This document shows positions 1 to 734 of a DNA stretch of 1,612 bases, piece after piece; position 1 is the first letter of the stretch, and each line of letters starts with the position of its first letter. The notes beneath the pieces were generated by a model that was given only the letters and a program-made list of their open reading frames with translations, did not search any database and was not told the origin of the DNA. The position numbers were made by a program, and so were the translations under genes. This stretch comes from Escherichia coli (lineage in GTDB: Bacteria > Pseudomonadota > Gammaproteobacteria > Enterobacterales > Enterobacteriaceae), in assembly GCF_003334255.1 (NCBI RefSeq), contig NZ_QOWU01000154.1, one strand, 5' to 3'.

Positions 1-734
1 TCCGGCATTCGCTCACTACAGCTTATCCAACCATCCGGAGTTACCGGAGAGTTGCCCGATAGTGCATTCTGCTCCAGTGATGCTTTTACAAACCACGCTG
101 CCTGAACTATAACGCCATGAATCCAGCGCAAATCAGCATCGCGATCTTTCTTTTTCATCTTTTCGCCACTTAAGGCCTTGCTTATGTGGCTGCGTACCAG
201 GTCTTCATGTAATTCCTTCGCCTCCTCAATGGTGAAACCACCAGGCAGAAGAGCCGGAGTTACCGGAGAGCTGGTTGACGCTTCCGGGATTTCCCGAAAA
301 TTATTGGTTGACGAATTCTTGCTTTCCCGAAAGTTTCCGGACTGAAGCATGTCGGTGCGGCAGGCGTTCCATATTTCGGCAGCAATATCGCGCTCGCTAT
401 CGGTTAATTTGTACGTGGAAACATAGCCAGAGAGCATTTCTACGTTTTCCGGAGTTGCTTCTTCCGGCACTACCGGCGCTGGCGGGGCGGCAAATAGATA
501 TCCGCCAAAGTCAGGAAGCTCTCCAATGGCCTGTACGAACTTTTGTTTGCCTACGTCAACTCCTAATGGGTAATGAGCTATAATCTTTGCCACCGGCTCT
601 GCTTCCAGCGATACCAGTGCAATTCGTGCCAGTTCTTCCGCTTCTTCTGCTGGCAGTACAACGTTGCTACCCGGTCCGTATGTTTCGCGCCACTGCTTGA
701 TTGTCAGCAGTCGCCCTTTGGTAATAGTGATCAT
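1..734 (-). CDS. Hypothetical modular phage protein, 3' partial (C-terminus beyond window start); N-terminal domain, S/T/N-rich repeat linker, ~70-aa middle module, then onset of a DUF551-like domain
   Basis: Manual minus-strand translation from ATG (734..732) to position 3 gives 244 codons with no stop: MITITKGRLLTIKQWRETYGPGSNVVLPAEEAEELARIALVSLEAEPVAKIIAHYPLGVDVGKQKFVQAIGELPDFGGYLFAAPPAPVVPEEATPENVEMLSGYVSTYKLTDSERDIAAEIWNACRTDMLQSGNFRESQEFATNNFREIPEASTSSPVTPALLPGGFTIEEAKELHEDLVRSHISKALSGEKMKKKDRDADLRWIHGVIVQAAWFVKASLEQNALSGNSPVTPDGWISCSERMP... The ATG overlaps the upstream stop as ATGA (731-734). Upstream on the minus strand is AAGAAGGAAACGCGGC-ATG, a GGA-type Shine-Dalgarno with ~8 nt spacer, and an in-frame stop lies just upstream (753-755), so 734 is the first possible ATG. 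'GWISCSERMP' at the edge resembles the start of DUF551 domains (recalled from memory, not searched). Missing from the ORF track only because it is open-ended. Confidence 0.75.
   Translation of the reverse strand, partial: MITITKGRLLTIKQWRETYGPGSNVVLPAEEAEELARIALVSLEAEPVAKIIAHYPLGVDVGKQKFVQAIGELPDFGGYLFAAPPAPVVPEEATPENVEMLSGYVSTYKLTDSERDIAAEIWNACRTDMLQSGNFRESKNSSTNNFREIPEASTSSPVTPALLPGGFTIEEAKELHEDLVRSHISKALSGEKMKKKDRDADLRWIHGVIVQAAWFVKASLEQNALSGNSPVTPDGWISCSERMP
35..51. repeat. 17-bp perfect direct repeat, copy A (CCGGAGTTACCGGAGAG); partner at 254-270
   Basis: Exact 17/17 match read directly; copies are 219 bp apart (73 codons, in frame). On the minus strand this copy encodes N-S-P-V-T-P-D, immediately before 'GWISCSERMP'. 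Confidence 0.9.
254..270. repeat. 17-bp perfect direct repeat, copy B (CCGGAGTTACCGGAGAG); partner at 35-51
   Basis: Exact 17/17 match; on the minus strand encodes S-S-P-V-T-P-A at the end of the S/T-rich linker of gene 3. Confidence 0.9.
273..338. repeat. Imperfect 33-bp tandem duplication (2 copies, ~70% identity) encoding an 11-residue S/T/N-rich repeat
   Basis: 273-305 ggttgacgcttccgggatttcccgaaaattatt versus 306-338 ggttgacgaattcttgctttcccgaaagtttcc: 23/33 identical, including shared GGTTGACG and TTTCCCGAAA blocks. Minus-strand translation gives NFRESQEFAT-N-NFREIPEAST. Confidence 0.75.

Follow-up and report, generated by a model that had tools for sequence, protein, structure and literature searches.

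A DUF551/Eaa-type early gene of Escherichia coli prophages that runs off a 1,612-nucleotide window and is replaced in an ORF list by antisense reading frames

The open frame on the minus strand

Which strand is coding in the first 734 positions of a 1,612-nucleotide (nt) stretch of Escherichia coli DNA (contig NZ_QOWU01000154.1, assembly GCF_003334255.1), referred to in the following as the window? A mechanical list of open reading frames (ORFs) of at least 60 amino acids (aa) contains only two entries in this span, 275..583 and 573..830, both on the plus strand. The first-pass annotation had proposed that these are antisense shadows of a long minus-strand gene that is missing from the list. 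Our best explanation is that 734..1 is very probably the 5′ part of a genuine coding gene of a lambdoid E. coli prophage, encoding a modular early product of the DUF551/Eaa type.

Translation of the minus strand from ATG 734..732 down to position 3 gave the 244 sense codons without a stop that had been claimed, and its product has MITITKGRLL at the N-terminus and GWISCSERMP at the window edge. The same frame has a stop six codons before the ATG, with no ATG, GTG or TTG between the two. The ribosome-binding site and the ATGA overlap with the upstream gene, both part of the original claim, were found by direct reading (Table 1). The ribosome-binding region, taataagaaagaaggaaacgcggcatga, was the same in seven of eight loci, the eighth (L016) having one base changed outside the site, and the 4-nt overlap was kept in 10 of 10 contexts of the upstream gene. 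The remaining five frames of 1..734 could be read for at most 38 to 115 codons between stops. A 244-codon run has a composition-based chance of about 4e-6 in a single frame, and only one of 5000 dinucleotide-preserving shuffles contained such a run in any frame. The minus-frame product is acidic, with an isoelectric point (pI) of 5.1 for the window fragment and 4.8 for the whole protein. Scans for promoter and terminator consensus sequences gave counts equal to the shuffle expectation, and neither Rfam (E ≤ 1) nor a tRNA search returned a credible match in the window.

In seven loci, no frame except the minus frame was open over the whole gene; it remained so, spanning 252 to 317 codons, despite in-frame indels and the swapping of whole segments. 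The whole window is 100% identical to four complete E. coli genomes (JE86-ST05, JE86-ST02, UCPROB-001 and UCPROB-002), 99.7–99.9% identical to many further E. coli chromosomes and 99.4% identical to the temperate phage PhiR5_1. Partial matches were found in 3095 of 5426 genomes, with a median of 2 and a maximum of 11 matching places per genome, and in about 460 phage records, mostly of Stx-converting and P22-like phages. In locus L001, positions 1..734 match at 100% identity within 5826..6734, which is there an intact 302-codon ORF. An exact look-up placed the 302-aa protein (P0135) on 132 contigs and a shorter 252-aa protein on at least 998; with so many independent contigs and assemblies, a sequencing error that opened the frame falsely, one of the alternatives raised at the outset, is ruled out.

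Homologous proteins numbered more than 7600 at E ≤ 1e-5 in a word-indexed search and 3040 at E ≤ 0.001 in an exhaustive search of 50%-identity representatives. Their public names include “DUF551 domain-containing protein”, “Eaa protein”, “phage protein” and “Ea22”; some relatives are called “dTDP-6-deoxy-L-hexose 3-O-methyltransferase”, a name to which family searches give no support. The coding sequence is annotated in phages PhiR5_1, AU5Stx1 and Ss-VASD and in RefSeq genomes. The gene is already widely annotated in E. coli prophages, with no function assigned, and is nothing new as a gene. Within codons 166–225, 20 of the 28 differences from a diverged copy in L016 fell at codon position 3, with 19 synonymous and 6 non-synonymous codons; this pattern points to clear purifying selection on the predicted helical-hairpin module encoded there.

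The opposite reading, in which 275..583 and 573..830 are the true coding frames and the minus frame is open by chance or through a sequencing artefact, can appeal to the fact that the ORF finder lists both, and ORF 573..830 is open in close relatives too, though the DNA of that stretch is nearly identical there. However, neither ORF matched a PHROG family at E ≤ 0.1, and ORF 275..583 is broken by extra stops in the Stx-phage relatives L004 and L008, so that the plus-frame homology that might have overturned the first-pass annotation did not materialize. The products are basic (pI 10.1 and 8.5) and rich in Arg and Cys, in agreement with the Arg/Cys/Trp-rich composition described earlier, while the thousands of homologues belong to the minus frame and the sequence recurs in hundreds of independent assemblies. 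The plus-strand reading is refuted for practical purposes, and the two ORFs are antisense shadows of the minus-strand gene. The latter is absent from the list because the list omits ORFs that run off their source; its absence is a listing convention, not biology.

RefSeq offers a different picture of the same DNA. In L001, 6273..6734 is annotated as a pseudogene “missing C-terminus” and 5826..6059 as one “missing N-terminus”, and a second strain is annotated alike. The two loci with this split, L009 (2326–3234) and L001 (5826–6734), correspond to window 1–734 plus 175 nt past the low edge. Taken literally, this annotation of 100%-identical genomes by RefSeq/PGAP would mean that the region holds two DUF551 pseudogene remnants rather than one live gene. 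We regard this as highly improbable: the 302-codon frame is unbroken from ATG to stop in those very genomes, and the identical protein has GenBank accessions (BCA67839.1 and BCA73128.1) as well as its 132 contigs. The unannotated gap between the two pieces comprises exactly one swappable module, residues 155–225, so that the split is best explained by reference proteins lacking this module having been aligned to the DNA. It is likely an annotation artefact of mosaic proteins.

Modules, linker repeats and the joint at the window edge

An AlphaFold2 model of the protein had a mean predicted local distance difference test (pLDDT) score of 70.4. It showed N-terminal helices at residues 6–18 and 29–44, two short strands, a long helix at 112–136, a disordered stretch at 135–164 (pLDDT < 50 at 135–143 and 152–164), a helical hairpin at 169–223 and a five-stranded beta domain, corresponding to DUF551, at pLDDT ≈90. 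In the search of representatives, homologues matched discrete segments (1–50, 1–95, 1–134, 83–160, 154–221 and 226–301). We describe the protein as an acidic string of small modules: a helical pair at about 1–50, two variable segments at about 50–134, a disordered linker with repeats, the hairpin at about 166–225 and the small beta-rich DUF551 domain. Residues 1–234 matched no Pfam or NCBIfam family, and the similarity of the N-terminus to a neighbouring “MTITK...” hypothetical protein was not significant. Both forms of the protein matched PHROG family phrog_60 (E = 5.5e-61 for 302 aa and 3.7e-42 for 252 aa); all of the matched PHROG families are labelled “unknown function”. The neighbouring Ead/Ea22-like protein matched another part of the phrog_60 profile, so this family links mosaic proteins in a chain and does not represent a single architecture.

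The modules are separated by short conserved linkers, “APPAPVVPEE” and “SPVTP”, that double as DNA repeats. The disordered stretch ends in “SSPVTP”, the same motif that precedes DUF551, and positions 272–335 encode an 11-aa tandem repeat (NFRESKNSST / NFREIPEAST) within the predicted disordered linker. A 172-aa variant in L011 has lost exactly the segment between the two SPVTP repeats, and in P0001 that segment is present twice. More widely, alleles range from 61 to 401 aa, with differing modules following a common N-terminus, ribosome-binding site and ATGA overlap. The natural deletion and duplication variants identify the SPVTP repeats as recombination points, and recombination at the linkers deletes, duplicates and swaps modules. 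Accordingly, the window ends exactly on a joint of this kind.

At this edge, the first-pass annotation had seen a DUF551-like motif begin. The 244-aa fragment alone matched positions 1–10 of the Pfam DUF551 model (PF04448) at E = 0.053; in the extended 302-aa protein, residues 235–298 matched the whole model (1–68 of 68) at E = 3.6e-20, which bears out that claim. Extension of the sequence, the check that had been suggested, gave the expected complete domain in one context and not in the other. In JE86-ST05, the frame runs 58 codons past the window, and the resulting 302-aa protein includes the complete DUF551 domain. The frame of S1-CAM-02-A and PhiR5_1 stops after 8 further codons, ending in SERMPDDRQEVNQ, and the product is the common 252-aa form without the domain core. 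Alignment showed that the homology of the two contexts ends no more than 2 bases from window position 1, which is, on this comparison, a mosaic joint. Residue 127 is D in the window and in the 302-aa JE86 protein and A in the 252-aa allele.

In the 252-aa allele, the DUF551 core between the W-x-S..RMP and HWMPLPEPP borders is absent, and no precomputed Pfam domain was found for its clusters, P0006 and P0007. Comparison with P0010, which reads SERIPDDKQ followed by HWMPLPDDRQEVNQ, makes the allele look like an in-frame deletion of the DUF551 core between two PDD(K/R)Q motifs. Conversely, the 244-residue N-terminal part, with 240–244 of 244 residues identical, was found joined to at least four unrelated types of DUF551 domain, in products of 302 to 313 aa. 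Across these types, the C-terminal part (58 to 69 residues) has only 20–27 identical residues, and most of these lie at conserved borders. The borders, W-I-S-x-S-E-R-M-P and T-H-W-M-P-L-P-E-P-P, are present in the 302-aa protein. In P0028, the same N-terminal part carries a C-terminal part that Pfam fails to recognize as DUF551. The high end of the window stops just before contexts diverge inside the Ead/Ea22-like gene. Since both ends thus fall at or just before points where near-identical prophage contexts part, a possible explanation is that the window is a unitig from the assembly whose limits are branch points between copies of the prophage.

The 252-aa RefSeq protein, WP_000628775.1 (L002 2976–3734 and L010 2476–3234), goes by different names in two genomes, “phage protein” and “DUF551 domain-containing protein”. 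Past its gene, at about 2895–2979 on the minus strand of L002, there is an unannotated small ORF whose ATG overlaps the stop (CAATGA); its predicted product, MSWPDAIVTLGVVFAAAFVVFSICRWG, is hydrophobic and about 27 aa long. In L001, the 302-aa gene is followed by a comparable start, MIWPEAF...; both observations were made by eye on the alignment.

Neighbouring genes and genomic setting

All genes of the window are on the minus strand (Table 1) and belong to an early accessory array. Genomes with 100% identity to the window have this array between replication gene P and antiterminator gene Q (the nin region), in S1-CAM-02-A, GmF052 and PhiR5_1 it adjoins xis and int (the exo-xis region), and a third, plasmid-like setting has ParA-like and HicAB genes.

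Table 1. Features of the 1,612-nt window, with positions numbered from its first letter.
Feature	Position	Strand	Remarks
5′ part of prophage early gene, DUF551/Eaa type (very probable)	734..1	minus	244 codons plus 2 bases of codon 245
First strand of DUF551 domain, codons 235–244, GWISCSERMP	3..32	minus	Pfam model positions 1–10
20-nt direct repeat, copy 1, CCGGAGTTACCGGAGAGTTG; “SPVTP” linker before DUF551	35..54		Repeat family D2
“SPVTP” linker repeat, copy 2	254..273		95% identical to copy 1, at a distance of 219 nt (73 codons)
Two 31-nt repeat copies, 33-nt spacing	272..335		Repeat family D1
ATGA stop/start overlap	731..734	minus	ATG 734..732 and TGA 733..731 of upstream gene
Gene for 171-aa protein, predicted PD-(D/E)xK nuclease fold	731..1246	minus	Translationally coupled to DUF551/Eaa gene
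Ribosome-binding site GAAGGA (AAGGA 747..743)	743..748	minus	8 nt 5′ of ATG, read directly
Ead/Ea22-like gene, C-terminal 121 codons	1248..1612	minus	182 aa in L001; runs off high end

The first-pass annotation had allowed for an Ead/Ea22-type N-terminal domain in the DUF551/Eaa protein. This was not borne out: Pfam found only DUF551 there, and the Ead_Ea22 domain (PF13935) was found instead in the gene two upstream, at E = 4.3e-36. That gene starts about 184 nt past the high edge of the window; because it runs off the window, the listed ORF 1248..1556 (GTG start, 102 aa) is a shortened stand-in for it.

Between the two lies the gene with the predicted nuclease fold. RefSeq annotates window positions 1068–1246 (179 nt; L001 7068–7246, L002 4068–4246 and L010 3568–3746) as a “frameshifted” hypothetical pseudogene of it; despite this label, the frame is unbroken over its 171 codons, and the gene is annotated whole in phage records. 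In the Klebsiella prophages L022 and L024 (2513–3259), the nuclease-fold gene is followed by one of family PF04447 (dATP/dGTP pyrophosphohydrolase, MazZ-like) and not by a DUF551 gene. Obligate linkage of the DUF551/Eaa gene with the nuclease-like gene was considered and rejected, as diverged homologues of the latter have other neighbours. NCBIfam had no family for any of the three window genes, and PADLOC at E ≤ 0.1 had none for the DUF551/Eaa protein or its two neighbours.

Possible function and significance

The DUF551 (PF04448)/Eaa/EaA proteins of P22-like and Stx phages resemble the 302-aa protein in having a full C-terminal DUF551 domain, and public records use the names “DUF551 domain-containing protein” and “Eaa protein” for identical and near-identical proteins. 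As differences, no more than the initial 10 domain residues are encoded in the window, the commonest (252-aa) allele keeps the name in databases while having lost the domain core, and most of the protein, residues 1–234, is outside DUF551. The domain has been described as portable, occurring in Ea22 variant V2 and in YfdS, and Ea22 has been described as pro-lysogenic and cells without yfdS as H2O2-sensitive (PMC10834534, PMC4776307). Ea22 of lambda and Stx phages (PMC10834534, PMC7093339) is encoded in the same exo-xis early leftward accessory array in some prophages; it is a mosaic multi-domain protein, like the DUF551/Eaa protein, its V2 variant has DUF551, and phage PhiR5_1 labels the DUF551/Eaa gene “Ea22”. 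YfdS of the cryptic prophage CPS-53 (PMC4776307) is likewise a DUF551-assigned product of a prophage early region and is linked to H2O2 tolerance; it has only 120 aa, without the N-terminal modules of the DUF551/Eaa protein, and in strain GmF052 a yfdS gene is located five genes upstream of the DUF551/Eaa gene.

By analogy with these systems, our best, though tentative, suggestion is that the gene product could be a dispensable early accessory protein whose exchangeable C-terminal head binds other proteins, a proposal that we consider possible rather than probable. Expression of the gene, as of the neighbouring ones, would begin soon after infection or induction, and the gene would be dispensable. 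The conserved N-terminal part might form a scaffold and the exchangeable DUF551 domain a target-binding head, and binding of a host or phage partner might modulate host physiology or the lysis–lysogeny balance, as has been reported for Ea22 and YfdS. With a pI of 4.1, the DUF551 part is acidic, and this speaks against its binding DNA. In a Foldseek search with the domain model, the best matches were Tudor and Hfq small beta-barrels, with template modelling (TM) scores of about 0.5 on the target. A PDB sequence search with the 302-aa protein gave only a chance match (E = 0.71) and no relation to the solved C-terminal domain of lambda Ea22. A literature search found nothing for PF04448 and, for DUF551, nothing with a tested mechanism.

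Several results weigh against the reading of 734..1 as a coding gene for a modular early accessory protein of this kind. For most of the gene, substitutions favour third positions only weakly, since module replacement accounts for much of the divergence. The commonest variant, of 252 aa, lacks the DUF551 core, so either the presumed binding head is dispensable for upkeep of the gene or that variant is decaying. Ead_Ea22 (PF13935/IPR025153) did not match the 244-aa or the 302-aa protein even at E ≤ 10, so the protein is not an Ea22 orthologue. Finally, BLASTP of P0135 against YfdS of a related prophage (L010) gave no similarity (E = 48), so a transfer of function from YfdS is weak.

An alternative is that the protein is a counter-defence or superinfection effector, with the N-terminal part as its body and a rapidly exchanged acidic C-terminal domain directed at variable host immunity proteins. 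The joining of identical N-terminal parts to several unrelated DUF551 types, or to the non-DUF551 C-terminal part of P0028, is consistent with such a role, as are the position of the gene in early accessory arrays, the overall acidity of the protein (pI 4.8) and a related locus with Lar-like and other accessory genes nearby. However, module exchange is typical of lambdoid accessory genes generally, no paper in the literature searched ties DUF551 to defence, and PADLOC, which covers defence rather than anti-defence, gave no match; on balance, we think this role unlikely. It is less plausible still that the protein and the coupled nuclease-fold protein form a functional unit, in which the former might, for instance, regulate the latter or serve as its specificity subunit. 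This idea draws on the ATGA overlap and identical ribosome-binding region in 10 of 10 contexts of the exact nuclease-like protein, on a gene order that is the same in three phages and on the rare fusion products P0319 and P0330. But the 10 contexts are nearly identical DNA and therefore not independent, the downstream gene ranges from 61 to 401 aa in product length, and diverged nuclease homologues in Klebsiella, Morganella and Serratia precede unrelated genes (PF04447 hydrolase, NinF/NinG and others).

To return to the coding gene itself, the finding is mainly one of quality control: a mechanical ORF list hides genes that leave the window, and long antisense ORFs stand in for them. As by-products, RefSeq was found to split an intact 302-codon gene into two “pseudogenes” and to call its intact 171-codon neighbour “frameshifted”, the name “DUF551 domain-containing protein” was found on a common allele without the domain, and the unnamed neighbour gene could be assigned to a predicted PD-(D/E)xK nuclease fold. 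The window gives no new handle on the biology of DUF551 or of the exo-xis/nin accessory genes. One speculative extension, to which we give little credence, is that the protein is an early effector with an N-terminal scaffold and interchangeable small beta-barrel heads, swapped at the SPVTP repeats and each tuned to a different host or rival-phage target, such as immunity proteins, possibly acting together with the nuclease-fold protein. If this were true, the intragenic linker repeats would be a built-in recombination device that diversifies target specificity.
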